Below, piece by piece: positions 642-24,000 of a stretch of DNA of 24,000 nt. Below the pieces are notes generated by a model. That model was not told where the DNA came from and made no database searches. It was given only the letters and a program-made list of their open reading frames with translations. Each line of letters starts with the position of its first letter. Position 1 is the stretch's first letter. The position numbers were made by a program, and so were the translations under genes. The stretch is from contig NZ_SIXF01000004.1 in assembly GCF_004310665.1 (NCBI RefSeq), forward strand, positions 153,742 to 177,741, in the 5' to 3' direction. The stretch is from Pedobacter kyonggii (GTDB lineage Bacteria > Bacteroidota > Bacteroidia > Sphingobacteriales > Sphingobacteriaceae).

Positions 642-658
642 TTAAAACACGATAGCCT

Positions 659-2038: not shown

Positions 2039-2039
2039 T

Positions 2040-3476: not shown

Positions 3477-3477
3477 T

Positions 3478-4839: not shown

Positions 4840-4848
4840 TCAAAAGAT

Positions 4849-6045: not shown

Positions 6046-6074
6046 AAAGTATTTTGCCATATATTATTTGAAAG

Positions 6075-7772
6075 ATGAAAATAAGCGTTAATAAAAATTT
6101 GCTAATTGTTTCTGGGCTTTTGGCTAGCTTTGTGATAGCATCACCAAAAGATGTATCTGCTCAAAAAAAAGCACACAAAAAACCAAACTTTGTACTGGTG
6201 ATGGCTGATGATCTTGGTTACTCTGATTTGGGATGCTATGGTGGAGAAATCAATACCCCAAACTTAGATCGCATTGCTAAACAGGGCATGCAGTTTACCG
6301 AATTTTATAATGTGAGTAGATGTTGCCCTACCAGAGCTTCCTTATTAAGTGGTTTATATAACCATGATGCGGGTATAGGCGATATGACTACACCTCAGAA
6401 TGATACTGGGTATAGAGGATATCTGGGAAAAAACACCGTAACAATAGCCGAAGTACTTAAACAATCTGGTTACCGTACTGCAATGGCTGGCAAGTGGCAT
6501 ATATCTAATACCATAACCCAGCAAAATAAGGACGATCAAATGAAGTGGTTGAACCACCAGGCAGAGCACCCGTTGTTTTCGCCTGCAGATCAATATCCAA
6601 CCAGTCGCGGGTTTGAAAAATTCTATGGAACCATTTGGGGCGTGATAGATTTTTATGACCCTTTTAGCTTGGTAGAAGGCAATAAACCGGTTACAAGTGT
6701 ACCAAAAAATTATTACCACACTGATGCAATCAACGATAAGGCTGCGGGATACATCAGGGAGTTTAGTAAAGGAGATCAGCCTTTTTTCTTATATATCGCC
6801 CATAATGCGCCGCATTGGCCAATACAAGCGCCTGAAGAAGATATTGAAAGATATAAAGATACCTATAAAGTGGGTTGGGAGGTGATCAGGGAAAACAGAT
6901 ACAAAAAAATGGTCAGTTTAGGTTTAATTGATCCCAATAAAGTTAAACTTTCGCCTCGTCATCCCGCTCAGCTAAGTTGGGCAGATAATCCAAATAAAGA
7001 GTGGGATGCAAGAGCAATGGCGGTTCATGCAGCCATGATCGATCGTATGGACAGGGGGTTGGGAAGGGTGATAAAAGCCTTGGAAGAAACTGGGGAAATG
7101 AATAATACCGTATTCGTTTTTTTGAGCGATAATGGTGCCAGTGCAGAACTTTCTGATAAATATGGACCAGGCTTTGATAGGCCAGGCCAAACCCGTGATG
7201 GACGGGAGATTTCTTATGCAACAGATAAAACGGTAATGCCTGGAGCACAAACCACATTTTTTTCTATCGGTCCGGCTTGGGCAAATGTGGCCAATACACC
7301 ATTCAGATTATGGAAATCACAATCCTTGGAGGGCGGTATTCATACACCAATGATCGTATCCTGGCCAGCTGGCATTAAAAACAAAGGTAGTAAAACAGGT
7401 CATGTTGGCCACGTAATGGATTTTATGGCAACATTTATAGATATGGCTGGTGTAAGCTATCCAAAAGAATTTAATGGCAACGCCATAACACCTTTGGAGG
7501 GTGTAAGCCTGGCTGGGGTATTTTCTGGTCAGAAAGCGGCATCACATCAGGCACTGTTTAATGAGCACGAAGGCAGCAAATATGTCCGCTTGGCAGATTG
7601 GAAACTTGTTGTAGCTGGACCTAGCAAAAAATGGCAGCTTTATAACCTGGCTACTGATAAAAGTGAGTTGAATGATCTGGCAGCGCAATATCCTGATAAG
7701 GTGAAAACTTTGAGTGCCATGTGGGACGATTGGGCAAGCAAACACCATGTGCTTCCAAAACCTTCAAAATAA
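6075..7772 (+). CDS. Arylsulfatase-type S1 sulfatase (long form, 565 aa), secreted
   Basis: PNFVLVMADDLGYSDLGCYGG and CCPTRASLLSGLY motifs. Also GKWH, LSDNG, and a C-terminal LYNLATDKSELNDLA segment. Confidence 0.93.
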   Translation: MKISVNKNLLIVSGLLASFVIASPKDVSAQKKAHKKPNFVLVMADDLGYSDLGCYGGEINTPNLDRIAKQGMQFTEFYNVSRCCPTRASLLSGLYNHDAGIGDMTTPQNDTGYRGYLGKNTVTIAEVLKQSGYRTAMAGKWHISNTITQQNKDDQMKWLNHQAEHPLFSPADQYPTSRGFEKFYGTIWGVIDFYDPFSLVEGNKPVTSVPKNYYHTDAINDKAAGYIREFSKGDQPFFLYIAHNAPHWPIQAPEEDIERYKDTYKVGWEVIRENRYKKMVSLGLIDPNKVKLSPRHPAQLSWADNPNKEWDARAMAVHAAMIDRMDRGLGRVIKALEETGEMNNTVFVFLSDNGASAELSDKYGPGFDRPGQTRDGREISYATDKTVMPGAQTTFFSIGPAWANVANTPFRLWKSQSLEGGIHTPMIVSWPAGIKNKGSKTGHVGHVMDFMATFIDMAGVSYPKEFNGNAITPLEGVSLAGVFSGQKAASHQALFNEHEGSKYVRLADWKLVVAGPSKKWQLYNLATDKSELNDLAAQYPDKVKTLSAMWDDWASKHHVLPKPSK

Positions 7773-7894
7773 TAAATAGGATTTAGCGATCTAAAACCCC
7801 ACCTGTTTGTATCTAAACTAAAAAATGCAAGCAGATGACTTTATTTGATGGTTTCCTACTGCAGTAACCCATTTAATTCTATAACAGCTTTAAA

Positions 7895-9316
7895 ATGAAA
7901 AAGTATTTAGCAGGTACACTTATTATTTTGTCAGTACTGGGCTTTTCCTTGAGAGAGTCTACGGCACAATCAAATAAAAAGCCAAATATCATCATTATTC
8001 TCGTTGATGATTTGGGTTGGGGAGATGTAGGCTATCATGGTGGAAACATCCCTACGCCAAATATTGATCGACTGGCAAAACAAGGGGTAGAACTAAATAG
8101 ATTTTATACAGCAGCTGTTTGTTCGCCAACAAGGGCTGGCTTGCTTACTGGCAGATATCCGGATCGTTTCGGATTAAGGAAAACGGTTATTCCTCCCTGG
8201 TCTGATTTTGGGGTGAGCACCGATGAGGTTTTTCTGCCAGAAATGCTTAAAGCAGCAGGTTATAAAAACAGGGCCATACTCGGAAAATGGCATCTTGGTC
8301 ATGTTTCCTTAAAATATCATCCACTAAACAGGGGCTTTACCCATTTTTATGGCCATTTAAATGGTGCTATTGATTATTTTACGCATAAGCGGGAGGGCGA
8401 ACTGGATTGGCACAATGATTTTAATTCCAGTTATGATGTCGGATATTCTACTGATCTCATTGCTGATGAGGCTATTAAAAACATCAGATCATATCACAAA
8501 GAATCTCCTTTCTTCCTTTATATTGCTTTTAATGCACCCCACGGTCCACTGCAGGCCAAAGAGGATGATTTAAAGCGTTTCGGTTACGATGCTACCAAAC
8601 CAAGTTTCCCGAATGGCGGTAAAGAAGGCGATGAGGGAAGGGGTAATACCAAGCAACAAACCTATGCGGCTATGGTCAGTAATTTAGATGCTAATATTGG
8701 GAGAATATTAAAAACCTTGAACGACCTCAAAATTGATCAGAATACCATCGTACTATTCCAAAGTGATAACGGTTATGCACCAAATGAGGCTGGTTCAAGC
8801 GGTATTTTACGCGGATCTAAGTTTACCCAATGGGAAGGTGGTGTTAGAGCTCCAGCGATTATAAGATGGCCACAAGTTTTTAAGGGTGGCTGGAAAAGCG
8901 AGCAAGTTACAGGTTTTGTCGATGTTTTTCCTACGATTTTGGCTGCTGCCGATGTTATGGAAAAACCCAAAAATCCGCTCGACGGGATCAATGTTCTTCC
9001 AGTGTTAAAACAAAAGCAATCTTTTATCAATCGTAATCTCTTTTTGGGAGATGGCGTTTTGGTAAATAGGAATTGGAAAATATTGGAAAAACTGGATCAA
9101 AATTCTGGCATGAAACTAAAATCTGATGTACTTTTTCAAATCGACAGGGATGTTAGTGAAAAGAACGATGTAAAAGACCAATACACCAGTACTTACCAAT
9201 TATTAAAAAAAGATTTAGCACCATTTAATGCGATTAAGGCCACAGCAGAAGTTGCTAACTTCGATGTGGGTAAAAAAGGATTTGTCGCCCCTAAAGAATG
9301 GAAAGTTGAAAAATGA
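7895..9316 (+). CDS. S1-family sulfatase (arylsulfatase B / GalNAc-4-sulfatase-like), secreted
   Basis: PNIIIILVDDLGWGDVGYHGG, CSPTRAGLLTGRYPDRFG, GKWHLG and QSDNG motifs. It is set apart from the preceding genes by a 122-nt gap. Confidence 0.9.
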   Translation: MKKYLAGTLIILSVLGFSLRESTAQSNKKPNIIIILVDDLGWGDVGYHGGNIPTPNIDRLAKQGVELNRFYTAAVCSPTRAGLLTGRYPDRFGLRKTVIPPWSDFGVSTDEVFLPEMLKAAGYKNRAILGKWHLGHVSLKYHPLNRGFTHFYGHLNGAIDYFTHKREGELDWHNDFNSSYDVGYSTDLIADEAIKNIRSYHKESPFFLYIAFNAPHGPLQAKEDDLKRFGYDATKPSFPNGGKEGDEGRGNTKQQTYAAMVSNLDANIGRILKTLNDLKIDQNTIVLFQSDNGYAPNEAGSSGILRGSKFTQWEGGVRAPAIIRWPQVFKGGWKSEQVTGFVDVFPTILAAADVMEKPKNPLDGINVLPVLKQKQSFINRNLFLGDGVLVNRNWKILEKLDQNSGMKLKSDVLFQIDRDVSEKNDVKDQYTSTYQLLKKDLAPFNAIKATAEVANFDVGKKGFVAPKEWKVEK

Positions 9317-10145: not shown

Positions 10146-10174
10146 TGTAAGGATTCCATTAAGCGCCCGACTAA
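10146..10174 (+). promoter_or_regulatory. Candidate ECF-type promoter, copy 1 (upstream of the alpha/beta hydrolase)
   Basis: TGTAAGGATTCCATTAAGCGCCCGACTAA. It fits TGTAAGG-N15-CGAC(T/A)AA with the same spacing as the four other copies and is preceded by a T-run. It ends 77 nt before the ATG at 10251. Confidence 0.65.
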
Positions 10175-10250
10175 GCAATGTAATATTTGGCTGGCCCTAA
10201 ATATTGGCTGCAAGTGTAGCATCCAAGCCTCCCATTTTAAACTAAATTTA

Positions 10251-11216
10251 ATGATTATGAGAACACCTTTGATGATAATATTCTTCTTGATCATCGGTTT
10301 TTGCAATATTAAAACTGTTAAAGCACAATCTACCAAATATGATTTCCCACCTCAAACAAATTATCGCTACCAGTATGTGAAAGGTTTACGCATGTTTTAT
10401 AGAGAAGCGGGAGACAAAAACAGACCGACGATTGTTCTGCTACATGGATTTCCATCATCTTCTCATACCTATAGAAATCTTATTCCAATGTTGGCAACTC
10501 AGTACCACGTTATAGCGCCCGACAACATAGGGTCAGGATTTAGTGACAGGCTTAATCCCAATAATGTGAAGTATACATTTGATACATTGGCCAACTTTAC
10601 GAACACACTACTTGACAGCATTGGAGTTAAAGACTATGTAATGTATATGCAAGATTTTGGTGCTCCTGTAGGATACAGAATGTATGCTATGAAGCCTAAG
10701 CGTATTACTCATCTTATCGTTCAAAATGCAAATGCTTATTTAGAGGGACTCACGGCTGATAGACAATTGTTCTTCAAATCCGCACATGATGATTCTTCGA
10801 AATCTAAAATTGATTTTTTGTTTGGTTTGATGTCAAAAGAAGCCATTATCAACAAGCAATATTTATTTGATATTGACTCCTCAAGGTATGATATACAATC
10901 ACCCGATGCATGGGTTCATGATTTATACTTTTTGCAGTCGGATGCTGATAAAAAAATTCAAGTGCAATTATTTCAGGACTATTACAATAATTTGCTGAGT
11001 TATCCCTATTGGCAAGAGCTGCTAAGAAATAATCAACCAAAAACTTTAATTGCATGGGGTGAAAAGGATATGAAATTTATTTCAGAAGGGGCCAAAGCAT
11101 ATTTAAGAGATCTTCCAAATGCCGAATTACACTTACTGGATGCAGGACATTTTGCTGTTGAAGAAAAAGGAAGAGAGGTTGCCATACTTATCCTGAACTT
11201 CTTGAAGAACAACTAA
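10251..11216 (+). CDS. Secreted alpha/beta-fold hydrolase of the epoxide-hydrolase/haloalkane-dehalogenase type (Asp nucleophile)
   Basis: Signal peptide ..IIGFCNIKTVKAQS. HGFP oxyanion motif (LLHGFPSSSHTYRNL). Nucleophile-elbow-like MQDFGAPVG, with Asp where Ser would sit. C-terminal catalytic His context LLDAGHFAVEE. The start could instead be the ATG at 10257. Confidence 0.85.
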   Translation: MIMRTPLMIIFFLIIGFCNIKTVKAQSTKYDFPPQTNYRYQYVKGLRMFYREAGDKNRPTIVLLHGFPSSSHTYRNLIPMLATQYHVIAPDNIGSGFSDRLNPNNVKYTFDTLANFTNTLLDSIGVKDYVMYMQDFGAPVGYRMYAMKPKRITHLIVQNANAYLEGLTADRQLFFKSAHDDSSKSKIDFLFGLMSKEAIINKQYLFDIDSSRYDIQSPDAWVHDLYFLQSDADKKIQVQLFQDYYNNLLSYPYWQELLRNNQPKTLIAWGEKDMKFISEGAKAYLRDLPNAELHLLDAGHFAVEEKGREVAILILNFLKNN

Positions 11217-11349: not shown

Positions 11350-11378
11350 TGTAAGGATTGACGGGCTGTTACGACTAA
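11350..11378 (+). promoter_or_regulatory. Candidate autoregulatory ECF-type promoter, copy 2 (upstream of the sigma/anti-sigma pair)
   Basis: TGTAAGGATTGACGGGCTGTTACGACTAA. Same motif and spacing as the other copies. It ends 65 nt before the sigma-factor ATG at 11443. Confidence 0.7.
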
Positions 11379-11442
11379 GGGGTCAAAAAGAATGCGACAG
11401 AAATGTGGGATGAGATGACCAAACAGAACCTTATATTTAGAT

Positions 11443-12042
11443 ATGTTACAAAAAGATCCTGAGTTTGATACTATTGACAAAAATGCCATCGACCCGCACA
11501 GTTGGGTAAACAAGTATGCCGACTATCTTTTCTCTTATGCGGTCTTCCGCATCAATGATCAGGAGCAGGCGCAGGACCTGGTGCAGGAAACTTTCCTTGC
11601 AGCACTGGAACGCCAGGAAAAGTTTGAAGGCAGGAGTTCTGAGAAAACCTGGCTAACGGCTATCTTAAAAAATAAAATCGTTGACGTTTACCGCTCCAGG
11701 TCGTCGGGACTCAGTAAAGAGATCATTCAAGCGGATATAGAAAGATCGGACGAGGATTTTTTTGACCAGAACGATGGCCATTGGAATGATCAGCACAGAC
11801 CGGCTAAGCTCGGCATAGAAACCTCCGATGCGCTGGAAAATAAAGAGTTTGAAAGAATATTGAAGGCTTGCATGGATAAGCTGCCTGCGCTCTGGCTATC
11901 AGTTTTCTCTATGAAGCATATAGATGAAGAGACCACCGAGCTGATCTGCAGTGAACTCAAGATCAGCTCATCAAATTTTTGGGTCATTATTCACAGGGCT
12001 AAAGTAAACCTAAGGTCATGCCTCCAAAAAAACTGGATTTAA
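11443..12042 (+). CDS. ECF-type RNA polymerase sigma-70 family factor
   Basis: Region 2 block DLVQETFLAALERQEKFEGRSSEKTWLTAILKNKIVDVYR. Region 4 block LPALWLSVFSMKHIDEETTELICSELKISSSNFWVIIHRAKVNLRSCL. It is 199 aa and followed 10 nt later by an anti-sigma-like ORF. Confidence 0.9.
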   Translation: MLQKDPEFDTIDKNAIDPHSWVNKYADYLFSYAVFRINDQEQAQDLVQETFLAALERQEKFEGRSSEKTWLTAILKNKIVDVYRSRSSGLSKEIIQADIERSDEDFFDQNDGHWNDQHRPAKLGIETSDALENKEFERILKACMDKLPALWLSVFSMKHIDEETTELICSELKISSSNFWVIIHRAKVNLRSCLQKNWI

Positions 12043-12052
12043 GCACGAACAG

Positions 12053-12340
12053 ATGAAAGAACTAACAGAAACAGAAATAAAAAAGATTGCATACAACTGC
12101 CGTAAGGCGACCTATTTGATAGAGAAGCAGCAAATAGGCAAAATTACGTTAAGGGAGAAACTGGAACTAAAAATCCACCTGACCGGATGTGCAATTTGTG
12201 TCACTTTCATGCGGCAGAGCGCGGTGATCAATCAAATGGCCAGGAAGCTGGTGAATGCGGATTCCAATACGCTGAAGCTGGACGAAAAATTTAAAGAGCG
12301 GATGCAAAAACGCATCAATAGCCGCCTGAACAAAAATTGA
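12053..12340 (+). CDS. Small soluble zinc-binding anti-sigma factor (ZAS, RsrA-like), no transmembrane segment
   Basis: It carries H42-x3-C46-x2-C49 (IHLTGCAIC) plus C16 exactly 25 residues upstream of the His. It is 95 aa, has no hydrophobic helix, and sits immediately downstream of the ECF sigma gene. Confidence 0.7.
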   Translation: MKELTETEIKKIAYNCRKATYLIEKQQIGKITLREKLELKIHLTGCAICVTFMRQSAVINQMARKLVNADSNTLKLDEKFKERMQKRINSRLNKN

Positions 12341-12598
12341 TCAGCAAAATAAAGATTGGCTATGGAATTTTCCCTGCGCAATAGAATACATCCATTATTT
12401 GTATTCCTGTTGATAACCATCTTGTCGTTAGTCATTTTACTGTGCTTGGCCGAATCCATTTTCATTTTTTTCATTTTGTCTTTTTCCATCTTGCCCTTTT
12501 CCTGGAACGGAGATGCCAGAACGCTAAGGGAAAGGCAGGAAACGATTAAGGCTGAAAACGGTGTTTTAAACAGAAATATATGGGACTTGAAACGCCCA

Positions 12599-12784
12599 AT
12601 GGCCAATACTATGTGGGGCTGGAAATGGGGAGCGCCATTCACCCTCAGCCAATACTGGCTTATGAAAAACGGAAAGCCTTTATTAGTCGAGCACGGCGCC
12701 CCTTTAAGGCTAATCATACCAGTAAAATATGGAATTAAGAATTTAAAAAGGATTGGAAATAGCCTGTTTAGCAATAAATTTTAA
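12599..12784 (+). pseudogene. Possible C-terminal relic of a molybdopterin-binding oxidoreductase (sulfite-oxidase/MsrP-YedY fold)
   Basis: ..LMKNGKPLLVEHGAPLRLIIPVKYGIKNLKRIG.. resembles the conserved ..NG.PL....G.P.RLVVP..YG.K..K.I block at the C-terminal end of the Mo domain. The upstream part of the 142-aa ORF shows no Mo-domain features (no Cys ligand region). The last 42 nt overlap the convergent gene on the - strand. Confidence 0.4.
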
Positions 12785-14588: not shown

Positions 14589-16271
14589 TTAAGAATTGGC
14601 CGACTTTACGTATCGCGTGTTCCGTCTGATCATATCTATGCCTTCTCGGTAGGGCATATAACTCAGCCCGCGCTCCCTGCGGTTTTGTTTACTTACCTGG
14701 TATAAGATACTCCAATGACGGATGATCTCTTTCCAGGCAAAAAATATCAAATGTTTAGGATCGTAAATATGAGCCGGCTCGCTGGCAGCACCATTTACCT
14801 CCATGATCTTGAATTGACCGGCACAGAGTTCCGGCCAGGTATGGTACTTCACATCTAAGCGACCGTAATAAAAGCCTGGGATCTGTGTGCAAACCGCGTG
14901 GACACTTTGTACCAGCTCGTCGGTCAGATGATCGCTAAGGTCAATAAATTTTGCGCCGCGGCTATGATTGCCATAAGGTGCCGGCAGGGCAATTTCGCCT
15001 GCGGGAATGATACGTTGCAGTGCCTGGTAATCGTATTTGGCTAATGCTGGCAGTTGCAGCAGATATCTCGGCTCTTTGGCCAACAGCTCCTGTAAAGTGG
15101 AGCATCCGTCGCCGGTTACACTCATTAGTTCCTTTCCAACGATACCAGTGATGCTTACAATATCACTGCCCGGCATTCTGTAATAAAATATCCCGGCTTC
15201 TTTAGGATAATCAATATATTCCTGCAGTAAAAAATCTACCTTACTGTTAGCTGCATAAGTCTGGAGGTCTTCCTGAGATTTTAACAATTTCACCTGCAAA
15301 CCACGTTGGCCGATATCAGGCTTGGCAATCAGTGGCAAAGCAACGTTGATGTTTGCCACCGGTGTACCAGCTTTAATCAGAATCGTCTTTGGACAATATT
15401 GCGGAATATGGGTGTAAATTTGATACTTGCTATCCATGGCGAACCCGCCATTTTTCATGCCAGGGTTAGCCGTATTAAAGAAAAAAATGGCACGTGACTT
15501 AATACTGAGCCAAAACCAATAGAACATTACAGGCGTATAGACAACATAATAAGGCCAATACTCCCAATTAAAAAGCTTTATCAAAAAAATGCGCAGATTC
15601 AACCATGAAATTTCCTTCCTAACTATATCCAACTGCTTTGCCTGTGTTGTGTTGGTTTTAAGATCCTCATATGTCATATCCACTTGGGTATAACTTACCT
15701 GGATATGTGTGATGCTTACGGTGCTAACAGGGCCCGTTAAGCATTCCGACCGATGAAAATCAATTACAGCTGCACGGTCCTTTTTATTCGCCGATTTAAA
15801 ACGGCTGAATTTTTCCCTTTGGTTTATTTCATCGTAAAGCGTTGCAGAGCTCCATATTTGCGGCTGTTGCGGATCAAGCTGAACCGAGTATTTATATGCT
15901 CCATCCCAGCGGCATTCACAAACCATCCCTTTTGTGCAAAGCACCAGGGTAAAAGGCTCAATATCGTGCAGATCAACGCTTTCAAAATACCGTTCCGGGT
16001 GAGTGTTTGCAATGACTTCCAGCAGTAGTAAGCCGCGGCTTTTCTTATAAAACGGCTTTTGGATGTGTTTGGCAAAAGCGCCGTTCAATAGTACCGCCAC
16101 GTCGCCATTTGTCTTAGCAGCGATCCAGCTACCGCTTTTATCGGGGTCTTTGGGATAAAGCAGGTTGCCATAAGTAGCCGGGGAAATCGCCGTACCGCGA
16201 TTTTGATGCTCATCCCGGTTTGAAGTCAGATAAAAGCCTTCCTTGGCCGGTATATAAGTTACGGTGCACAT
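14589..16271 (-). CDS. Fusion protein: N-terminal NRDE/TANGO2-like domain (Cys2), two predicted TM helices, C-terminal ATP-grasp ligase domain
   Basis: It starts MCTVTYIPAKEGFYLTSNRDEHQNRG, giving the Met-Cys start plus literal NRDE motif of the NRDE/TANGO2 family, with SRG and LLNG blocks further on. The hydrophobic stretch is FNWEYWPYYVVYTPVMFYWFWLSIKSRAIFFF. The ATP-grasp signatures are PLIAKPDIGQRGLQVKLL, LLQEYIDYPKEAGIFYY, and the E-x-N Mg site in FKIMEVNGAASEPAHIYDP. Confidence 0.75.
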   Translation of the reverse strand: MCTVTYIPAKEGFYLTSNRDEHQNRGTAISPATYGNLLYPKDPDKSGSWIAAKTNGDVAVLLNGAFAKHIQKPFYKKSRGLLLLEVIANTHPERYFESVDLHDIEPFTLVLCTKGMVCECRWDGAYKYSVQLDPQQPQIWSSATLYDEINQREKFSRFKSANKKDRAAVIDFHRSECLTGPVSTVSITHIQVSYTQVDMTYEDLKTNTTQAKQLDIVRKEISWLNLRIFLIKLFNWEYWPYYVVYTPVMFYWFWLSIKSRAIFFFNTANPGMKNGGFAMDSKYQIYTHIPQYCPKTILIKAGTPVANINVALPLIAKPDIGQRGLQVKLLKSQEDLQTYAANSKVDFLLQEYIDYPKEAGIFYYRMPGSDIVSITGIVGKELMSVTGDGCSTLQELLAKEPRYLLQLPALAKYDYQALQRIIPAGEIALPAPYGNHSRGAKFIDLSDHLTDELVQSVHAVCTQIPGFYYGRLDVKYHTWPELCAGQFKIMEVNGAASEPAHIYDPKHLIFFAWKEIIRHWSILYQVSKQNRRERGLSYMPYREGIDMIRRNTRYVKSANS

Positions 16272-16759
16272 CCCTGCCTGTATTTGAGCGTGGATGCCGC
16301 GATGCCAAATCCGGCCGGTATCTCTATTGCTGAGATGGCACCAATGCCTATTCTGATCAGTGCCATATGATGTACGGTATGCTCCAGGTTGTAGATAAGT
16401 TCCCGGTAGTAATTGGTTTGTATTCGGATTGATTGAGATTCCTCAGCATCATAGTTTACCACCAGCACGAGTTTCCGGTCGGGTTTCCCTAAACTACAGA
16501 TAATTTCCCGTAGACATTGCTGCGCTACCTCTTTATCGTTTTCTACGGCGTGGTTTCTTTCGCGGCGGTCATAATCAACCTCCCCGATCGCATAACCCTT
16601 ATTGAGTTCCAAATAAAACTCCAGTATATGACGGCCATGCTGACCTATGGTTGACCCGGATAAGATGGTCAGCGGATGTGTAAATTCGGTATTGGTCAGC
16701 CCGCCGATAATACCGTGTAGCTGTTCTAGCAAATTGGTTATAGGTTCTTTAAGCGGCAT
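16259..16759 (-). CDS. DinB/DinB_2-superfamily-like four-helix-bundle protein (putative metal-dependent, possibly thiol-dependent, enzyme)
   Basis: His-rich motifs sit at DinB-like positions: GQHGRHILEFY in the N-terminal third and LEHTVHHMALI (H-x3-H) near the C-terminus. It is 166 aa. Its stop overlaps the downstream ATG by 13 nt. Confidence 0.5.
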   Translation of the reverse strand: MPLKEPITNLLEQLHGIIGGLTNTEFTHPLTILSGSTIGQHGRHILEFYLELNKGYAIGEVDYDRRERNHAVENDKEVAQQCLREIICSLGKPDRKLVLVVNYDAEESQSIRIQTNYYRELIYNLEHTVHHMALIRIGIGAISAIEIPAGFGIAASTLKYRQGCAP

Positions 16760-16763
16760 AGGA

Positions 16764-17165
16764 TCAGCGATTGGTAAATGGTAGATAGTTGAACAATTGT
16801 TTTTTTAAGAGCGGCACTAATGCCATGCAGCTGATTAACGTCACTAAAGCCAAAATGAAAAGTTTACCACCATCGTTCTGTACATTGATGCCTAATTGTG
16901 TCAGGTGAAAAAAGATAGCCCCCACAATAATGCCTATGCCTAGCAGCGCGCCTAAAATAGTGGTACGGGGAAACAGGATCAATAGGGAGGCGATCAGTTC
17001 TAGGCAGCCGATGCCGATGCGTCCATATGGCTCCATCCCTAATTTGGTAAAGATATACACAGATTCCGGCGCGGCTGTAAACTTGAAGAAAAGGGTTTGC
17101 AGCATAATGCCGGCTGCTATCAGGCGGAGGCCCCAGGTTAGCATATCAAGGTTTTTTGTCGTCAC
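16764..17165 (-). CDS. DoxX-family integral membrane protein
   Basis: About 130 aa with four hydrophobic helices. WGLRLIAAGIML..FFKF.. and GCLELIASLLILFPRT are typical DoxX blocks. The start is either the GTG at 17165 or the ATG at 17144. Confidence 0.8.
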   Translation of the reverse strand: MTTKNLDMLTWGLRLIAAGIMLQTLFFKFTAAPESVYIFTKLGMEPYGRIGIGCLELIASLLILFPRTTILGALLGIGIIVGAIFFHLTQLGINVQNDGGKLFILALVTLISCMALVPLLKKQLFNYLPFTNR

Positions 17166-17211: not shown

Positions 17212-17667
17212 CTAATTTTGAGTGAACCTGGTCCAACTTATATCAGCTTTGGTTTTCAGCCTGCTCTCGTCTTTATCCCAGGATTTTTTGGTATTGTTAA
17301 GGAATTTGTTGTAAAAGAGGTAAAGCTTGCCACTTACGAGCTTAAAAGTCTCCGGGTCAACAGCTACTTTGGTGCCGCTGGCTCCCATGGCATAGGCACA
17401 CCAACCACCATATTGCGGTAAATATTTAGCGGTGTTGGCCTTAAACAGACTGCGGTGCTGGTTGCTGACAAAACGATAAGTCACGCCATCATGCACCAAC
17501 GTAATTTCTTTTTTCCCTTCGACCGCTTTTTGCATCGTAAAATACGCTACCGGGTCGTAACCTGCCAACGCAAGGCCCGTATCATCCAGGTTAAGTTGTT
17601 TTTTTTGAGCCCGTGCTGAGTTCAGGATCAAGGCTGTAAATACGATAAGCAATAGGTATTTATACAT
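17212..17667 (-). CDS. Secreted YHS-domain protein (TRASH/YHS metal-binding-type fold; Cys form)
   Basis: Signal peptide MYKYLLLIVFTALILNSARAQ. LAGYDPVAYF...GVTYRFVS..HRSLF..N..KYLPQYGGWCAYAM...GKLYLFYN matches the YHS-domain family layout. The ATG at 17667 is preferred over the TTG at 17709 in the ORF track. Confidence 0.8.
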   Translation of the reverse strand: MYKYLLLIVFTALILNSARAQKKQLNLDDTGLALAGYDPVAYFTMQKAVEGKKEITLVHDGVTYRFVSNQHRSLFKANTAKYLPQYGGWCAYAMGASGTKVAVDPETFKLVSGKLYLFYNKFLNNTKKSWDKDESRLKTKADISWTRFTQN

Positions 17668-17689: not shown

Positions 17690-17718
17690 TTTGTCGCAGC
17701 CGGGGGCAAAACCTTACA
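17690..17718 (-). promoter_or_regulatory. Candidate ECF-type promoter, copy 3 (drives the YHS-DoxX-DinB-NRDE/ATP-grasp operon)
   Basis: The - strand reads TGTAAGGTTTTGCCCCCGGCTGCGACAAA, with the same motif and spacing. It ends 22 nt before the ATG at 17667. Confidence 0.65.
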
Positions 17719-17729
17719 ATATTTTTTTT

Positions 17730-17758
17730 TGTAAGGAAATCAGCAGGTTGCCGACAAA
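17730..17758 (+). promoter_or_regulatory. Candidate ECF-type promoter, copy 4 (drives the DM13/beta-barrel operon), back-to-back with copy 3
   Basis: TGTAAGGAAATCAGCAGGTTGCCGACAAA. It ends 25 nt before the ATG at 17784. The two -35 boxes form the inverted repeat CCTTACAAtattttttTTGTAAGG. Confidence 0.65.
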
Positions 17759-17783: not shown

Positions 17784-18209
17784 ATGAAAAAAATCATTTA
17801 TTTCAGCACCATCATCGCACTTATGGCCAGCTGCAAAAAAGAAAGCACTCCGACCGCAGTGCTCAATGAAAAGGTGGACATGATGATGTCCAAGCCTGAA
17901 ACCGACAGTAGCGGATTTATTAACGGCCCATATGGTTCAGTAAGGGGCACAGCCCGTATATATATAACCAACGGCAAATATCAACTGGCACTGGAAAATT
18001 TTAGCAGCAGCAATGGACCCGACCTTAAAGTGTATATCAGTAAGGAGCAGCGGCCGGTCAATTTTGTGAATTTGGGTTCGCTAAAATCTACAAAAGGGAA
18101 TCAACTATATGATATCCCGGGTAATGTCAAAGTTCAGGATTATGCTTATGCACTGATCTATTGCCAGCAATACAGTCACTTATTCGGTTACACTCAATTT
18201 ACCTATTAA
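17784..18209 (+). CDS. DM13-domain lipoprotein
   Basis: Lipobox ..IIALMASC. GTARIYITNGKYQLALENFSSSNGPDLKVYIS....LGSLKSTKGNQLYDIP...DYAYALIYCQQYSHLFG matches the DM13 pattern (fixed GPDL..Y, Lk...G.q.Y.iP, and late Cys). Confidence 0.72.
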   Translation: MKKIIYFSTIIALMASCKKESTPTAVLNEKVDMMMSKPETDSSGFINGPYGSVRGTARIYITNGKYQLALENFSSSNGPDLKVYISKEQRPVNFVNLGSLKSTKGNQLYDIPGNVKVQDYAYALIYCQQYSHLFGYTQFTY

Positions 18210-18210
18210 T

Positions 18211-19125
18211 ATGAAAAATATATATTTCTCTTGTATAGCCCTGCTTTGCACAACTTATACTTTTGGTCAGGGCTGCAGCGACGCAGGTTTCTGTAGCCTT
18301 GGCGTGCTCAAAAACAATGTGGCTGATTCAGCCAGGCACACCTTAAGTTTCGGCCTGAATTACGGCGTCGGCTACGAGCAGACCAACATTACTAATGCTT
18401 ATATAGAGTATGGAAGTAAACTGAGTGAACGTTTGTCCTTCCGAACTAAACTGACTGCCAATTATGCGACGGGGTTTTTAGGCAGCGCCTTTGACATAGG
18501 CGATATTTATGGTACGCTTAATTACGCCCTGAGAACTAAATCAGCCAGTACGATTAATATAATTGGCGGCGTAAAGGTGCCACTTACTGCCGGCAACCAT
18601 AAAAACAAAGATGGCAAGCCCTTACCGCTGGATTACCAAGCCAGTATCGGTACCTATGATGCCATAGGTGGTATTAATTACATCGTCAACCAAAGCTGGG
18701 AGTTTGATGCCGGAATACAGGTACCGGTTATACAGGTGAATAAAAACACCTTCTTTCCCGACGAACACAACGATTTCCGCGCAAACGAATTCGCACCTAC
18801 AAATAACTTTAAACGAAAAAGTGATGTCCTGGGCCGCATTGGTTACTATATTCAACTGCCGGCATCAGCTATTGTCTTAAAGCCAAGCTTGCTAGGTATT
18901 TATCACTTAGGCAGAGATACCTACGAAGACCGTTTTGGACAGCGCAACATCATCGAAGGCTCAGACGGTTTTACGCTGAACGGCAGCATCGTGGGCACTA
19001 AAAGATTTAAAAACGGCAATAGCCTGGAACTGCTTTTTGCAACTCCTTTCATCGTGCGTAAAGTGAGACCTGACGGACTTACCCGCAAAGGTGTCATAAA
19101 CGTCCAGTACACGATCTCGCTGTAG
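18211..19125 (+). CDS. Putative outer-membrane beta-barrel protein (MetA/phenol-degradation-type transporter-like), unknown function
   Basis: It has a signal peptide followed by the GCSDAGFCS motif. Alternating hydrophobic strands run throughout, and PLPLDYQASIGTYD is similar to the conserved loop of that barrel family. It starts 1 nt after the DM13 stop. Family call is from memory only. Confidence 0.45.
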   Translation: MKNIYFSCIALLCTTYTFGQGCSDAGFCSLGVLKNNVADSARHTLSFGLNYGVGYEQTNITNAYIEYGSKLSERLSFRTKLTANYATGFLGSAFDIGDIYGTLNYALRTKSASTINIIGGVKVPLTAGNHKNKDGKPLPLDYQASIGTYDAIGGINYIVNQSWEFDAGIQVPVIQVNKNTFFPDEHNDFRANEFAPTNNFKRKSDVLGRIGYYIQLPASAIVLKPSLLGIYHLGRDTYEDRFGQRNIIEGSDGFTLNGSIVGTKRFKNGNSLELLFATPFIVRKVRPDGLTRKGVINVQYTISL

Positions 19126-19269: not shown

Positions 19270-19298
19270 TGTAAGGATATGGCGGCCGTTACGACTAA
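19270..19298 (+). promoter_or_regulatory. Candidate ECF-type promoter, copy 5 (drives msrB and the DUF417 gene)
   Basis: TGTAAGGATATGGCGGCCGTTACGACTAA. It shares GTTACGACTAA with the sigma-gene copy and ends only 6 nt before the msrB ATG at 19305. Confidence 0.7.
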
Positions 19299-19304
19299 CT
19301 AAAT

Positions 19305-19811
19305 ATGAGAAGGATAAATATATTCGTATTTCCGCTTTTATTCGCAACACTGACCGCTTGTAGTCAGGGCGACGTTAAAAGCACAAAAGTGCCACATGCG
19401 CCAACTGTCGGATCCTTTCCAGCTGCTAAGCCTGACTGTTACTGGAAGAAAATATTATCGCCTGAAGCTTATGATATCATGGTCGGGAAGGGAACCGAAA
19501 GGCCTTTTAAGAACCCTTATCACGATAACCATAGGAAAGGGATCTATGTTAGTGCTGCAACTGGAAAGCCTTTGTTCGCATCTTCGGCGAAGTTCGATTC
19601 GGGTACAGGTTGGCCCAGCTTTTTTGAACCGATCGATGAAAAAGCGATCATGATCGTTAAAGATACTTCATTTGGAACGGTGCGTGACGAGGTGATCGAG
19701 CGTAGCACCGGTTTGCATTTGGGACACGTTTTTGACGATGGTCCGGCGCCGACCGGAAAACGCTATTGTATGAATTTCTACGCTTTGAAATTCATTCCAT
19801 CCAGACAATAA
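19305..19811 (+). CDS. msrB: Peptide-methionine (R)-S-oxide reductase MsrB, lipoprotein/exported form
   Basis: Lipobox LLFATLTACSQG. SelR-domain motifs KFDSGTGWPSFFEP, GLHLGHVFDDGP.PTGKRYCMN (catalytic Cys). Both structural-zinc CxxC pairs are absent (YVSAATGKPLF in place of the first). Confidence 0.92.
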   Translation: MRRINIFVFPLLFATLTACSQGDVKSTKVPHAPTVGSFPAAKPDCYWKKILSPEAYDIMVGKGTERPFKNPYHDNHRKGIYVSAATGKPLFASSAKFDSGTGWPSFFEPIDEKAIMIVKDTSFGTVRDEVIERSTGLHLGHVFDDGPAPTGKRYCMNFYALKFIPSRQ

Positions 19812-19857
19812 CATCAGACAAAAAAACCGGATTTAAAGAATACTAAAACAAACTCAA

Positions 19858-20292
19858 ATGAACATCAAAAAAACAGGATACGCCATCGGCGTTATCGGAA
19901 CGATCATCGTTCTATTATGGATAGGCATATTGAAATTTACGCCAACTGAAGCTGCAGCTATCAAACCCTACGTCGAGCATAGCTTTTTAATGGGCTGGAT
20001 GTACCAGATCGGAAGTGTGCAACAGGTTTCCAATTTTGTGGGAATCTTTGAACTTATAACCGCTATACTTCTTATCGCCTCGTTTTTCAACAGGCGGATG
20101 GGATTGATCGGGGGCTACCTGGGGGTGCTTATTTTCCTGACCACGCTTACCTTTATTTTCACGACACCCGGCATCTGGAAAGAGATGGACGGTTTACCCG
20201 TAACTGATTTTTTTGTTGTTAAGGACATTGCGTTCCTGGCTATTGTTCTCCAAGTGATCGGAATGCATCGAAAAGATGCCGATGCTGCATAA
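19858..20292 (+). CDS. DUF417-family (YkgB/RclC-like, DoxX-related) membrane protein
   Basis: 144 aa with four helices. IGILKFTPTEAAAIKPYVEHSFLMGWMY and VGIFELITAILLI resemble the DUF417 signature. It lies 46 nt after msrB with no motif or hairpin in between. Confidence 0.7.
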   Translation: MNIKKTGYAIGVIGTIIVLLWIGILKFTPTEAAAIKPYVEHSFLMGWMYQIGSVQQVSNFVGIFELITAILLIASFFNRRMGLIGGYLGVLIFLTTLTFIFTTPGIWKEMDGLPVTDFFVVKDIAFLAIVLQVIGMHRKDADAA

Positions 20293-21974: not shown

Positions 21975-22427
21975 CTACATTTTTTTTAAAGCCTTTTTAC
22001 CGAAAGCAATCAGTTGTTTGGCATCCAGGTAACCTATTGAACGATGCAGTACTTTTCCATCATAGTCAAGAATCAAAAGTGTAGGATATTCTTGTACTTC
22101 CCATTTTGCAGCTAAATTAGATCCTTCCCCTTTTTCCATATCAACAGCAAGATTAACAAAGTTTTGATTGAAATAATCAGCCGTCTCTCTGTCTTTAAAT
22201 GTTGTTTTTTTTAACTGCTTGCATGGACCGCACCAGGTTGTATAAGCATCGACAAAAATGTATTTATGTTCGGCTTTTGCTTTTTTTAATGCGGTTGAAT
22301 AGGCATTTTCGATAAATTTTATCGGTAATCTTTCTGTTGTTGAATCGTATGTTTTATCAACTGGCGAGAATGAACTCAGGGATAAAAGGATTGTAAATAA
22401 AAGTAATGGATATTTTAAATTTTTCAT
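21975..22427 (-). CDS. Secreted thioredoxin-family protein
   Basis: Signal peptide MKNLKYPLLLFTILLSLSSFS. The active site is WCGPC (TTWCGPCKQL). It lies 19 nt downstream of the DsbD-like gene. Confidence 0.9.
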   Translation of the reverse strand: MKNLKYPLLLFTILLSLSSFSPVDKTYDSTTERLPIKFIENAYSTALKKAKAEHKYIFVDAYTTWCGPCKQLKKTTFKDRETADYFNQNFVNLAVDMEKGEGSNLAAKWEVQEYPTLLILDYDGKVLHRSIGYLDAKQLIAFGKKALKKM

Positions 22428-22446
22428 TTGATTGGATTTTTAATTA

Positions 22447-24000
22447 TTACATGTTTTTAAATGCGGCCACTCCCTTGTCTAAAAATGTTACATATTTTGA
22501 AATATCAAGGTCGAAGGCCTGCGGGGCGGTCAACTGTTTCCCCGAACCGTTAATGATAACATAGTATGGTTGTGAATTAGTACCAAAGGTAGCAGCCTGG
22601 TAATCACCCCATTTCTGTCCTATCGTCTTTATTTTCTTTCCGTTGAATTTGGAAAGATATTTTTCATTTTCTGCAAGTTCGCTTTTGTCATCTACATAGA
22701 GAGATACAAGGATATAATCCTGCTTTAAGCGTTCGAGGACCTTTGGATCAGACCATACACTAGCTTCCATTTTACGGCAGTTGGTACAGCTCCACCCGGT
22801 GAAATCTAACAGGATTGGTTTATTTAGTTTTTTTGATTGCATAATCGCTTCCTCGTAATCATAAAAAGCATCCAAGCCGTATGGGGTATGGAAAAGAGAT
22901 GCATATTTCTTTTTGGTTGTTATTTCTGACTTCTCTGGGATTGTAGACCTTGTTAAATCAAATTCTTGTGAAGTGATAGGCGGCAACCATGCGCTGATCG
23001 ACTTCAGCGAGGCTCCGAAAACTCCTGGTATCATGTAAAACGTAAAACCAAAAACCAGCATGCTAACAAATAGGCGTGGCAGTGTAAGGGTTTTTGTTTC
23101 CGAATCATGAGAAAGCCTGATTTTTCCTGCAAGGTAAAAGCCTAGGAAGGCAAATATGGTTATCCATATAATTAGAAAAACATCCCTATTCAAAATCCCC
23201 CAGTGATAAGCCAGATCAACATTTGACAGATACTTAAAAGCCAGCGCGAATTCAAGAAAACCCAGAGACACTTTAACAGAATTCAACCACCCACCGGATT
23301 TAGGAAGCTCTTTTAACCATGAGGGGAAAATAGCAAACAAAGTAAAGGGAATTGCTAATGCTAAAGAGAATCCAAGCATACCCATTGCTGGCCCGTAATA
23401 CGTTCCTTTAGATACGGCATCGACTAGCAAAGTACCGATAATTGGCCCTGTACAGGAGAAAGACACCAGTGCGAGGGTAAAGGCCATAAAAAACAACCCC
23501 ACCATACCGCCTTTGTTGGACTTTTCATCCATCTTGTTAACCAGTACAGAAGGAAGGGTAATTTCGAAGGCCCCTAAAAAGGAAAGCGCAAAAATGATTA
23601 GAACAGCAAAAAAAATAAGATTGAACGTAGCGCTGCTCGCCGCTTCGTTTAACGCGGACGACCCGAAAAAAAATGTGATCAGCAATCCTAAACCCACATA
23701 AATGGTAATGATGAAAGTACCGTATAGAAAAGCCTTTTGTATTCCTTTGCGCCTTGATACTTCCTGTTTGGTAAAAAAGGAAATTGTTAGCGGTATCATC
23801 GGATAAATACAAGGCATAAAGAAAGCGGCCAGACCGCCGAAAAAACCTGCAATCAGGATTCCAAAGTATGAAGAAGTGCTTTCGCCAGGCATGCCATCTG
23901 TTGTGGGTTGCTCTACCTTTGACTGAACCGCGGCATTTTTACTGCCGCTTTGTTTATGCTTTCCTGTATTTGCCGCCTGTGGAGCTACAGATCCTGAACC
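22447..24000 (-). CDS. DsbD/CcdA-type thiol:disulfide interchange membrane protein with C-terminal thioredoxin-like domain, 5'-truncated by the window end
   Basis: Membrane-embedded Cys motifs FFMPCIYPMIPL and LVSFSCTGPIIG. The C-terminal domain has FTGWSCTNCRKME (CxxC). The reading frame stays open from 23893 to 24000 (GSGSVAPQAANTGK...), so the true start lies beyond the window. Confidence 0.85.
   Translation of the reverse strand, partial: GSGSVAPQAANTGKHKQSGSKNAAVQSKVEQPTTDGMPGESTSSYFGILIAGFFGGLAAFFMPCIYPMIPLTISFFTKQEVSRRKGIQKAFLYGTFIITIYVGLGLLITFFFGSSALNEAASSATFNLIFFAVLIIFALSFLGAFEITLPSVLVNKMDEKSNKGGMVGLFFMAFTLALVSFSCTGPIIGTLLVDAVSKGTYYGPAMGMLGFSLALAIPFTLFAIFPSWLKELPKSGGWLNSVKVSLGFLEFALAFKYLSNVDLAYHWGILNRDVFLIIWITIFAFLGFYLAGKIRLSHDSETKTLTLPRLFVSMLVFGFTFYMIPGVFGASLKSISAWLPPITSQEFDLTRSTIPEKSEITTKKKYASLFHTPYGLDAFYDYEEAIMQSKKLNKPILLDFTGWSCTNCRKMEASVWSDPKVLERLKQDYILVSLYVDDKSELAENEKYLSKFNGKKIKTIGQKWGDYQAATFGTNSQPYYVIINGSGKQLTAPQAFDLDISKYVTFLDKGVAAFKNM

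Follow-up and report, generated by a model that had tools for sequence, protein, structure and literature searches.

A TANGO2/NRDE domain joined to an unclassified ATP-grasp domain in Pedobacter kyonggii and its conserved association with a DinB-fold protein

The 24,000-nucleotide stretch of the Pedobacter kyonggii genome analysed here (contig NZ_SIXF01000004.1, positions 153,742 to 177,741 of the forward strand; hereafter the window, numbered from its first letter) encodes on its minus strand a protein of 560 amino acids (aa) in which a TANGO2/NRDE domain, linker helices and an ATP-grasp domain follow one another within a single open reading frame (ORF, 14589..16271). The initial annotation of this stretch had proposed such a fusion, and ORF analysis, Pfam searches, homologue alignments, structure prediction and Foldseek comparison bear it out, both in its coordinates and in the identity of the two domains. 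The gene pair is widespread, with its fused form derived and less common than the split one; this form is already catalogued and so is not a rare architecture. Together with a DinB-fold gene located immediately upstream, the pair makes up a conserved core found in two bacterial phyla. It is quite likely, in our view, that the three proteins are enzymes of one pathway placed under the control of an extracytoplasmic function (ECF) sigma factor. The fuller reading that we favour, a bifunctional amide-bond module with a DinB-like partner in an ECF stress regulon, acting preferably on a thiol-type metabolite, has about an even chance of being correct.

The reading frame begins with ATG-TGC (Met-Cys) and extends for 560 codons. 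Every motif listed in the initial annotation can be located in the translation, namely M1-C2, N18-R19-D20-E21, L61-L62-N63-G64 and S78-R79-G80 in the N-terminal half, and K317-P-D-I-G-Q-R-G324, Q350-E-Y-I353 and E491-V-N493 in the C-terminal half. Among 86 full-length homologues, the invariant positions include C2, R19, D20, E21, N63, G64, S78, R79 and G80, and also K317, P318, G321, G324, Q350, R471, D473, E491 and N493. The same 86 homologues made up the input alignment for an AlphaFold2 (AF2) model of the whole protein, which has a predicted local distance difference test score (pLDDT) of 89.6 and a predicted template modelling score (pTM) of 0.73. When this model is compared with the PDB by Foldseek, human TANGO2 ranks first, and ATP-grasp ligases come next.

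The TANGO2/NRDE domain corresponds to residues 1-215 (15627..16271, minus strand), with Cys2 encoded at 16266-16268 and the NRDE motif at 16209-16220. A hidden Markov model (HMM) search places it in the family to which it had been initially assigned: the Pfam TANGO2 model (PF05742) matches at 46.7 bits against a cut-off of 22.6 (E 6e-12), with the alignment limited to residues 12-114, or profile positions 15-126 of 257. The best PDB matches of the AF2 model are the human TANGO2 structures 9bwa and 8sv7 (E 2e-10, probability 1.00, target-normalised template modelling score 0.54-0.57), and the domain has the same four-layer alpha-beta-beta-alpha fold of the N-terminal nucleophile (Ntn) type. Using the human sequence, checked against 8sv7, hhalign (probability 92%) equates C2, N18-E21, R25, N63, R79 and G80 with human C2, N25-E28, R32, N75, R88 and G89. 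In the 86 fused and 27 fused-or-split homologues, M1, C2, R19, D20 and E21 are invariant and N18 is conserved in at least 90%; R25, N63, R79 and G80, the counterparts of human Arg32, Asn75, Arg88 and Gly89, are invariant among homologues as well. A crystal study of human TANGO2 supports a Cys-Ntn hydrolase, in which several of the mapped residues form the putative active site or anion-binding site; it suggests a Cys-Ntn hydrolase/acyltransferase class for the human protein, notes its structural likeness to acid ceramidase and bile-salt hydrolase, and finds its heme binding to be non-specific (PMC13044924, 2026). Human TANGO2 has also been found to bind the acyl part of acyl-CoA (PMC11867700). 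The statement of the initial annotation that neither half has a defined function in bacteria needs to be qualified, as a heme-trafficking role has been proposed for the bacterial homologue HtpA of Shewanella along with eukaryotic TANGO2 (PMC10470608), and has been challenged across species (PMC12782551) and disputed in the crystal study (PMC13044924).

The ATP-grasp domain comprises residues 263-560 (14592..15485, minus strand) and displays a truncated N-subdomain, K317 in the KPD motif, a hinge at Q350-E351, and the metal-site motifs R471/D473 and E491/N493. The ATP-grasp fold proposed for this half at the outset is upheld by structural matches and motifs, although no curated HMM reaches its threshold. 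Foldseek aligns the model with cyanophycin synthetase (7wae, E 5e-9), Ddl (6u1k, E 9e-9) and GshF (3ln6, E 3e-8), all with probability 1.00, and matches to these three kinds of enzymes span E values from 5e-9 to 1e-7. The KP loop and the hinge align weakly with K144 and E180 of Ddl and with GshF and CphA. Pfam has no ATP-grasp family match to the fusion protein, the NCBIfam ATP-grasp matches score 15-21 bits against cut-offs of 218-300, and RimK (PF08443) occurs in relatives as a sub-threshold or occasional match only. Neither half, searched as a single sequence against PDB chains, had a significant match. A profile search against the PDB produced marginal matches, all of them to ATP-grasp enzymes and at the superfamily level (E 0.03-0.5), with a 'GDG-ST-eL' segment common to the ATP-grasp half, cyanophycin synthetase and GshF in the profile alignment; hhalign of the family against E. 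coli DdlB is a weak pointer, aligning just the KP loop and the hinge (probability 4%). Between the aromatic helix that precedes the domain and the KPD loop there are about 55 residues, against about 120-140 in Ddl, and stand-alone members of the family start directly at this helix, which has the signature WExWP. The counterparts of K317, Q350, R471, D473, E491 and N493 are invariant in the wider family, including its Planctomycetota, LysE-fused and cysteine-dioxygenase-fused members.

A protein-database search with the fusion protein returned 2,480 relatives, and the best 120 of them are all full-length fusions (538-612 aa, 46-99% identity) from Mucilaginibacter, Pedobacter, Chitinophaga, Puia, Flavitalea and others. 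NCBI catalogues the fusion as 'NRDE family protein', and UniRef sometimes as 'ATP-grasp domain-containing' or 'RimK-like'. Searching with residues 224-560 against a representative library of 1.84 billion proteins gave 2,630 clusters (50% identity), and most of the best 150 of these are stand-alone proteins of 320-370 aa starting with the W-E-x-W-P helix. Elsewhere the ATP-grasp module is fused to a LysE translocator, to MORN repeats or, in one member, to a cysteine-dioxygenase-type cupin, and a single chain of 1,121 aa unites it with TANGO2, an alpha/beta hydrolase and a VTT/DedA domain.

We surveyed the organisation of the locus by ORF analysis in 80 species-representative genomes of Sphingobacteriales, Chitinophagales, Cytophagales and Flavobacteriales. 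A true fusion, with one uninterrupted ORF, is present in 22 of the 80 loci; in 58, the NRDE protein (about 236-247 aa) and the ATP-grasp protein (about 344-356 aa) are encoded by two adjacent co-oriented genes, mostly 0-12 nucleotides (nt) apart. The two genes of the split pair share the same frame in 51 of the 58 cases, and in 15 of the 58 the stop codon is directly followed by a start codon. In a neighbour-joining tree built from the ATP-grasp domain, the fused forms fall into essentially one clade, the split state is ancestral, and about two changes of state are needed. Tight same-frame pairs and a single fused clade indicate that the fusion is derived and arose by loss of a stop codon. The Rosetta-stone argument, by which the two halves ought to be found as neighbours in other genomes, thus finds strong support, and the pair also recurs in Planctomycetota. 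Since separate halves lie in the same frame in most relatives, a single base error could in principle mimic a fusion, and two genes joined by a frameshift had been named as a danger in the initial annotation. Such an artefact, be it a sequencing or assembly frameshift or a stop codon lost in one record, is hardly conceivable here: a 99%-identical full-length protein (P0001) has been recorded independently, at least 120 full-length clusters occur among the database relatives, and the 22 fused species genomes include complete chromosomes (L009 and L038) and form one clade, within which the length of the linker is conserved.

Both states are found in Dyadobacter, fused in three loci (L020, L021, L039) and split in two (L031, L062). 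Since the tree of the ATP-grasp domain clusters the fused Dyadobacter sequences with the fusions of Sphingobacteriaceae, the fused gene may have been transferred between orders. One Bacteroidetes metagenome-assembled genome contains two stand-alone ATP-grasp copies in one cluster (L024:5210-6253 and L024:8730-9839), the one upstream of DoxX and the other after NRDE.

The fusion gene belongs to a four-gene operon on the minus strand, in the order YHS, DoxX, DinB-like, fusion, with gaps of 46, 4 and -13 nt. Its most constant partner, which the initial annotation passed over, is the gene of a DinB-fold protein of 166 aa (16259..16759, minus strand), found immediately upstream in 78 of the 80 loci, where it is translationally coupled through an overlap of its stop codon with the next start; in the window this overlap with the fusion start is 13 nt. 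In Pfam searches of 25 members of this family, DinB_2 was found in 15 and DinB in 9, and NCBI names the protein 'DinB family protein'. Its AF2 model has pLDDT 92.4, and the top PDB matches (3gor, 2f22, 3dka, 6iz2 and 8f5v; probability up to 1.00, E from 4e-3) are DinB/YfiT folds and mycothiol S-transferase. The structural neighbours with assigned function are all thiol-dependent, i.e. mycothiol S-transferase (8f5v) and mycothiol-dependent isomerase (2nsf). Five histidines, H41, H44, H127, H130 and H131, are invariant, and the protein is probably metal-binding. A confidently predicted beta-hairpin insertion at residues 96-116 is atypical in comparison with the helical-bundle DinB structures that were matched.

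The trio is also present in Planctomycetota (Phycisphaerae), where the order is DinB_2, TANGO2 and then one protein combining alpha/beta hydrolase, VTT and ATP-grasp domains, with overlapping starts and stops; each of the three shares 28-35% identity with its window counterpart (blastp E 1e-13 to 1e-64). In three Planctomycetota proteins, NRDE, hydrolase, VTT and ATP-grasp are joined in a single chain. DinB, NRDE and ATP-grasp are therefore the conserved core of the locus in both phyla.

The remaining partners are less constant. A DoxX-family inner-membrane protein (16764..17165, minus strand; Pfam DoxX_2) is encoded upstream in 62 of the 80 loci as judged by tblastn and in 61 by ORF clustering. 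The first gene of the operon (17212..17667, minus strand, ATG at 17667) codes for a member of the YHS-domain (seleno)protein family (NCBIfam NF041384, 132 bits), with a hydrophobic N-terminal stretch that resembles a signal peptide, and is present in 58 loci by tblastn and 57 by ORF clustering. Most relatives have two tandem YHS paralogues upstream of DoxX (e.g. L001:6187-7092), against only one in the window, and by the name of the NCBIfam family some of its members are selenoproteins. A LysE-type translocator is encoded in 45 of the 80 loci, usually straight after the ATP-grasp gene. Less frequent neighbours are ECF sigma and anti-sigma factors, DM13, a beta-barrel protein of the outer membrane, DUF1223, YceI, which stands between DoxX and DinB in 9 loci, and an alpha/beta hydrolase, which adjoins the pair in 9 loci. 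The SnoaL, TetR and NAD-epimerase-like genes found downstream in the window were tried as partners and rejected, as they occur in 0 of the 80 related loci.

The operon appears to be part of a larger regulon. A motif of the form (T)GTAAGG-N15-CGAC(T/A)AA was derived upstream of ECF sigma genes in Sphingobacteriaceae loci, and GTAAGG-N15-CGAC occurs in the window in five exact copies, all situated a short way 5' of a gene. One copy (17693..17717, minus strand) precedes the YHS-DoxX-DinB-fusion operon, and a divergent copy (17731..17755, plus strand) precedes the genes of a DM13 protein (17784-18209) and an outer-membrane beta-barrel-like protein (18211-19125); the two divergent sites, 17693-17755, form an inverted repeat, CCTTACA...TGTAAGG. 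The other three, all on the plus strand, stand before an alpha/beta hydrolase to which the domain fused to ATP-grasp in Planctomycetota is related (motif 10147-10171, gene 10251-11216, unit 10147..11216), before the ECF sigma factor (11443-12042) and its 95-aa anti-sigma factor (12053-12340; motif 11351-11375, unit 11351..12340), and before MsrB/SelR (19305-19811) and DUF417 (19858-20292; motif 19271-19295, unit 19271..20292). If one mismatch is permitted, the number of matches rises to six, where 0.58 would be expected, and none of 100 shuffled sequences gives as many; the sixth (14839-14863, plus strand) falls within the fusion gene, on its other strand, and seems to be a chance occurrence. 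The motif is kept before the sigma and the YHS or DM13 genes in 9 related Sphingobacteriaceae loci. Scans for sigma-70-type promoter and terminator consensus inside the operon did no better than in shuffled sequence, and no riboswitch or other RNA family of Rfam was found in the window. Stress control through an ECF promoter, as predicted in the initial annotation, is thus retained in a modified form: a predicted ECF-type motif would govern the operon, but it is located about 1.4 kb upstream, before YHS, and not directly before the fusion ORF.

The anti-sigma factor encoded in the window has no evident transmembrane segment and no Pfam match. It carries C16 and H42-x3-C46-x2-C49, and this C...HxxxCxxC pattern is kept by the window protein and all of its 20 homologues (85-115 aa), which likewise show no evident transmembrane segment. 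The pattern is the signature of zinc-binding, redox-sensitive anti-sigma factors (ZAS), of which RsrA is the example. In Haemophilus and Neisseria, hypochlorous acid (HOCl) is the stress to which ECF regulons containing both msrAB and a DoxX cluster respond (PMC7907618).

Several further features of the window lie around these genes. Directly after the anti-sigma gene, an ORF at 12356-12784 (plus strand) has a match (E 6e-7) to just the final 30 or so positions of PF00174, the molybdopterin oxidoreductase domain; it seems to be what is left of a truncated MsrP/YedY-like gene and is possibly a decayed member of the regulon. The MsrB (SelR) protein has an N-terminal extension of about 50 residues. 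At 21975-23892 on the minus strand, near MsrB-DUF417 (19305-20292, plus strand), there are genes for a thioredoxin-like protein and for a DsbD_TM-thioredoxin fusion, and the MsrB, DUF417, thioredoxin-like and DsbD_TM genes constitute a neighbourhood of envelope methionine-sulfoxide and thiol-redox repair. At the other end of the window, positions 99-9316 (plus strand) encode a DUF3823 protein, five sulfatases and a glycoside-hydrolase-like protein, and look like a cluster for utilisation of sulfated polysaccharides, unrelated to the fusion.

The junction between the two domains of the fusion protein, residues 216-262 (15486..15626, minus strand), is made of a variable linker and two helices, the first basic and amphipathic (224-234), the second aromatic, invariant and containing W-E-Y-W-P (236-259); this second helix spans residues 241-259 in the AF2 model; the aromatic stretch, residues 234-257, reads FNWEYWPYYVVYTPVMFYWFWLSI. 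Two helices do exist here, as the initial annotation had it, but they are not the hydrophobic pair that was described, the one being short, basic and amphipathic and the other aromatic and interfacial rather than classically transmembrane. The 19-residue Kyte-Doolittle mean peaks at 1.05, below the approximately 1.6 usual for a transmembrane helix, whereas the Wimley-White octanol energy of the aromatic helix is very favourable (-16 kcal/mol), and 9 of its 19 residues are aromatic. In split genomes the junction is the N-terminus of the separate ATP-grasp protein. Proximity to the membrane is suggested because the WExWP segment is invariant across the whole ATP-grasp family, follows directly upon LysE or VTT membrane domains in other architectures, and replaces the N-terminal substrate subdomain. 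A single pass through the bilayer would put NRDE and ATP-grasp on opposite sides, though both need the cytoplasm, ATP-grasp for ATP and NRDE for the removal of Met1, there being no signal peptide. The simplest reading is a putative monotopic or re-entrant arrangement, and the predicted membrane anchoring of the fusion protein is plausible.

From these data we infer a scheme for what the enzymes do and in which order, what substrate they act on, which signal induces them and how they are associated with the membrane. In the NRDE domain, the alpha-amino group and the thiol of Cys2, exposed by removal of the initiator Met, would probably act as the N-terminal nucleophile that cleaves or transfers an acyl-amide. 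The ATP-grasp domain would use ATP to activate a carboxylate as acyl-phosphate and join it to an amine, forming an amide. Both activities would serve one pathway and the same metabolite, together with the DinB-fold protein, which would perform a metal-dependent step that modifies or conjugates this metabolite. ATP-grasp may then build an amide-linked small metabolite, probably with cysteine or another thiol, and NRDE may trim or recycle it, with the product passing to a membrane transporter, LysE in many Bacteroidota and the DedA/VTT domain in Planctomycetota; the existence of LysE::ATP-grasp fusions supports the latter step. The regulon would be held in check by the small soluble zinc-finger-type (HxxxCxxC) anti-sigma factor, and because an ECF regulon that includes MsrB comes with an anti-sigma factor of this kind, the module is probably switched on by oxidative or thiol-reactive stress.

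The thiol nature of the substrate is proposed tentatively, being in our view preferred but rather less likely than not. It is suggested by the thiol-dependent neighbours of the DinB fold, by the presence of GshF among the nearest ATP-grasp structures, by the fusion to a cysteine-dioxygenase-type domain, by the thiol-oxidative type of the regulon, and by the logic of two known systems, glutathionylspermidine synthetase/amidase (Gss) and the ergothioneine enzymes EgtA/EgtB/EgtC (see below). The regulon comprises MsrB, DUF417, DoxX and DM13, with DsbD and thioredoxin genes nearby. A bolder version of the same idea has the trio as the core of an undescribed pathway in Bacteroidota and Planctomycetota that makes, conjugates or recycles a new low-molecular-weight thiol, or other amide-linked protective metabolite, upon induction by a redox-sensing ECF/ZAS pair, and so would reveal the native role of the TANGO2 family as that of Cys-Ntn amidases or transferases whose substrate an ATP-grasp ligase has made. 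This we consider doubtful.

A number of points weigh against the favoured reading. We know of no TANGO2-family protein with known enzymatic activity. Alignment did not yield equivalents of human Asn157, a proposed oxyanion-hole residue, and Lys166, as hhalign ends at residue 107 and MAFFT is unreliable there; an invariant W140-S141-S142 sits, by position only, where the human protein has L-S-N157, and the Planctomycetota homologues have T-S-S at this place. The ATP-grasp half falls outside every curated ATP-grasp family and lacks the pre-ATP-grasp (Rossmann-like) N-terminal substrate subdomain, and its substrates are not readable from homology. The promoter motif and the assignment of the sigma factor to the regulon are predictions from sequence. 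A LysE gene was specifically sought in the window, and there is none. The study that found acyl-CoA binding by human TANGO2 states that acyltransferase activity was ruled out (PMC11867700). DedA/VTT, alpha/beta hydrolase, YceI and the aromatic interfacial helix fit a lipid substrate equally well.

The last point leads to the most important alternative, a module directed at a membrane lipid with an amide linkage, for instance an N-acyl amino-acid lipid, an aminolipid, a sphingolipid or a sulfonolipid of Bacteroidota. The NRDE domain would then resemble acid ceramidase, NAAA and bile-salt hydrolase in being a Cys-Ntn N-acyl amidase or transferase, perhaps one that uses acyl-CoA, and the ATP-grasp domain, held at the membrane surface by the aromatic helix, would attach an amino acid to the head group of a lipid, for envelope remodelling or repair under stress. 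We see this as a real possibility, while thinking it rather improbable on balance. An interfacial helix with nine aromatic residues of 19 and the conservation of WExWP in the whole family would suit it, as would the fact that in Planctomycetota a DedA/VTT membrane domain and an alpha/beta hydrolase are fused directly to ATP-grasp, the occurrence of such a hydrolase in the window regulon and beside the pair in nine loci, and the nine loci in which YceI, of a lipid-binding family, separates DoxX from DinB; the binding of the acyl part of acyl-CoA by human TANGO2 (PMC11867700) and its likeness to acid ceramidase and bile-salt hydrolase (PMC13044924) point in the same direction. But the LysE family exports amino acids and small solutes and does not consist of lipid flippases, lipid chemistry is not known for the DinB-fold partner, the neighbourhood has no conserved gene of lipid synthesis, and the Kyte-Doolittle hydropathy of the helix is low.

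Peptide tailing and heme chaperoning, as well as the artefact considered above, are less likely than the thiol and lipid readings. In the former, the ATP-grasp enzyme would add amino acids to a C-terminus or a side chain in the manner of RimK or cyanophycin synthetase, and NRDE would trim or remove them. The closest structures and profiles do include the cyanophycin synthetase G-domain (7wae, 7ta5, 8fxh), RimK-like and LysX-type enzymes, and the 'GDG-ST-eL' segment aligns with cyanophycin synthetase and GshF. We nonetheless judge this unlikely, as the similarity is at the superfamily level only (E 0.03-0.5 by sequence), the cluster has no conserved gene for a candidate substrate peptide, and the exporter and DinB partners are left unexplained. 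Very unlikely, in our opinion, is a non-enzymatic membrane-tethered heme chaperone of the HtpA/TANGO2 kind, with the ATP-grasp domain as an unrelated or regulatory appendage. It has behind it the published claim for bacterial TANGO2 homologues (PMC10470608) and the periplasmic redox proteins (DM13, DsbD_TM) encoded nearby; the invariant Cys2, NRDE, Asn63 and Arg79 point instead to catalysis, the obligatory pairing with an ATP-dependent ligase and DinB in two phyla would go unexplained, the surroundings have no conserved genes for heme or for the maturation of cytochrome c, and the role itself is contested, on account of non-specific binding (PMC13044924) and of a challenge across species (PMC12782551).

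The component superfamilies of this locus are known and the proteins are already catalogued, and it is the three-enzyme unit, the regulon and the unclassified ATP-grasp family that appear to be undescribed. A search of the literature library available found no description of NRDE/TANGO2 with ATP-grasp, DoxX or DinB, although an earlier mention in the amidoligase survey of Iyer et al. 2009 is possible. The function of TANGO2, debated between heme trafficking, the binding of acyl-CoA and Cys-Ntn hydrolysis, is of clinical relevance, as TANGO2 deficiency leads to metabolic crises. Here a bacterial relative is tied genetically, by fusion, translational coupling and synteny in two phyla, to a putative ATP-dependent amide ligase and a probable DinB-fold metalloenzyme. 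The ATP-grasp family delineated in the process comprises about 2,600 clusters (50% identity), has no curated model, and features an aromatic N-terminal helix in place of the substrate subdomain. The module lies within an oxidative-stress regulon predicted from sequence, and culturable species of Pedobacter and Flavobacterium carry it, so experiments can be concrete. The thiol-pathway reading, if true, would give a direct experimental handle on a substrate class relevant to human TANGO2 deficiency.

Comparison with known systems places these features in context. The ATP-grasp fold, the KP(D/S)xGxxG loop and the R-x-D and E-x-N motifs are shared with the G-domain of cyanophycin synthetase, the C-terminal domain of GshF and D-Ala-D-Ala ligase, whereas the N-terminal subdomain of those enzymes is swapped for the aromatic helix and a conserved segment of about 50 residues, and their substrate-binding residues are not transferable. 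E. coli Gss consists of an N-terminal Cys-nucleophile amidase and a C-terminal ATP-grasp-type synthetase, both of which target one and the same amide bond in a thiol metabolite, and the enzyme is regulated by oxidative stress. The P. kyonggii protein likewise has a Cys-nucleophile amidase-like domain and an ATP-grasp synthetase-like domain in one polypeptide, but this is an analogy of logic between non-homologous proteins: the amidase of Gss is of the CHAP type and not Ntn/NRDE, Gss has neither a membrane segment nor a DinB partner, and searches of Pfam, NCBIfam and PDB gave no Gsp-synthetase match to the fusion protein, the N-terminal domain of which is NRDE and not CHAP.

In ergothioneine biosynthesis, EgtA is an ATP-dependent gamma-glutamyl amide ligase, EgtB uses a DinB-fold metal domain in forming a C-S bond, and EgtC is an N-terminal-Cys Ntn amidohydrolase that removes the glutamate. 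The three-step logic of a ligase, a DinB-fold metal enzyme and an N-terminal-Cys Ntn hydrolase resembles that proposed here, in contrast to the proteins themselves: EgtA is not an ATP-grasp enzyme, EgtB has an additional domain like that of formylglycine-generating enzyme, EgtC is of the class-II glutamine-amidotransferase type and not NRDE, and no methyltransferase or C-S lyase is found in the cluster.

With regard to regulation, ZAS-controlled ECF regulons are represented by Streptomyces SigR-RsrA and by Neisseria SigE and Haemophilus RpoE2 (PMC7907618). The predicted regulon of the window resembles this group in its anti-sigma factor, which is small, soluble and of the HxxxCxxC type, in the autoregulation of its ECF promoter, and in having methionine sulfoxide reductase together with a DoxX cluster; the promoter consensus differs, being GTAAGG-N15-CGAC here, and DinB, NRDE and ATP-grasp genes are not in the described regulons of that group. 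Among proteins of the NRDE type, Shewanella HtpA belongs to the same Pfam family and is also cytoplasmic, but it is a stand-alone protein, a proposed and disputed heme trafficker (PMC10470608), for which no association with ATP-grasp or DinB has been reported. Human TANGO2 (8sv7, 9bwa; PF05742) has the same fold, the Met-Cys start, the NRDE motif and the conserved equivalents of Arg32, Asn75, Arg88 and Gly89, with only the first approximately 110 residues alignable by sequence and the position of Asn157 apparently taken by Ser. What distinguishes the bacterial protein from its eukaryotic counterparts is its coupling, covalent or translational, to an ATP-grasp ligase and a DinB enzyme.

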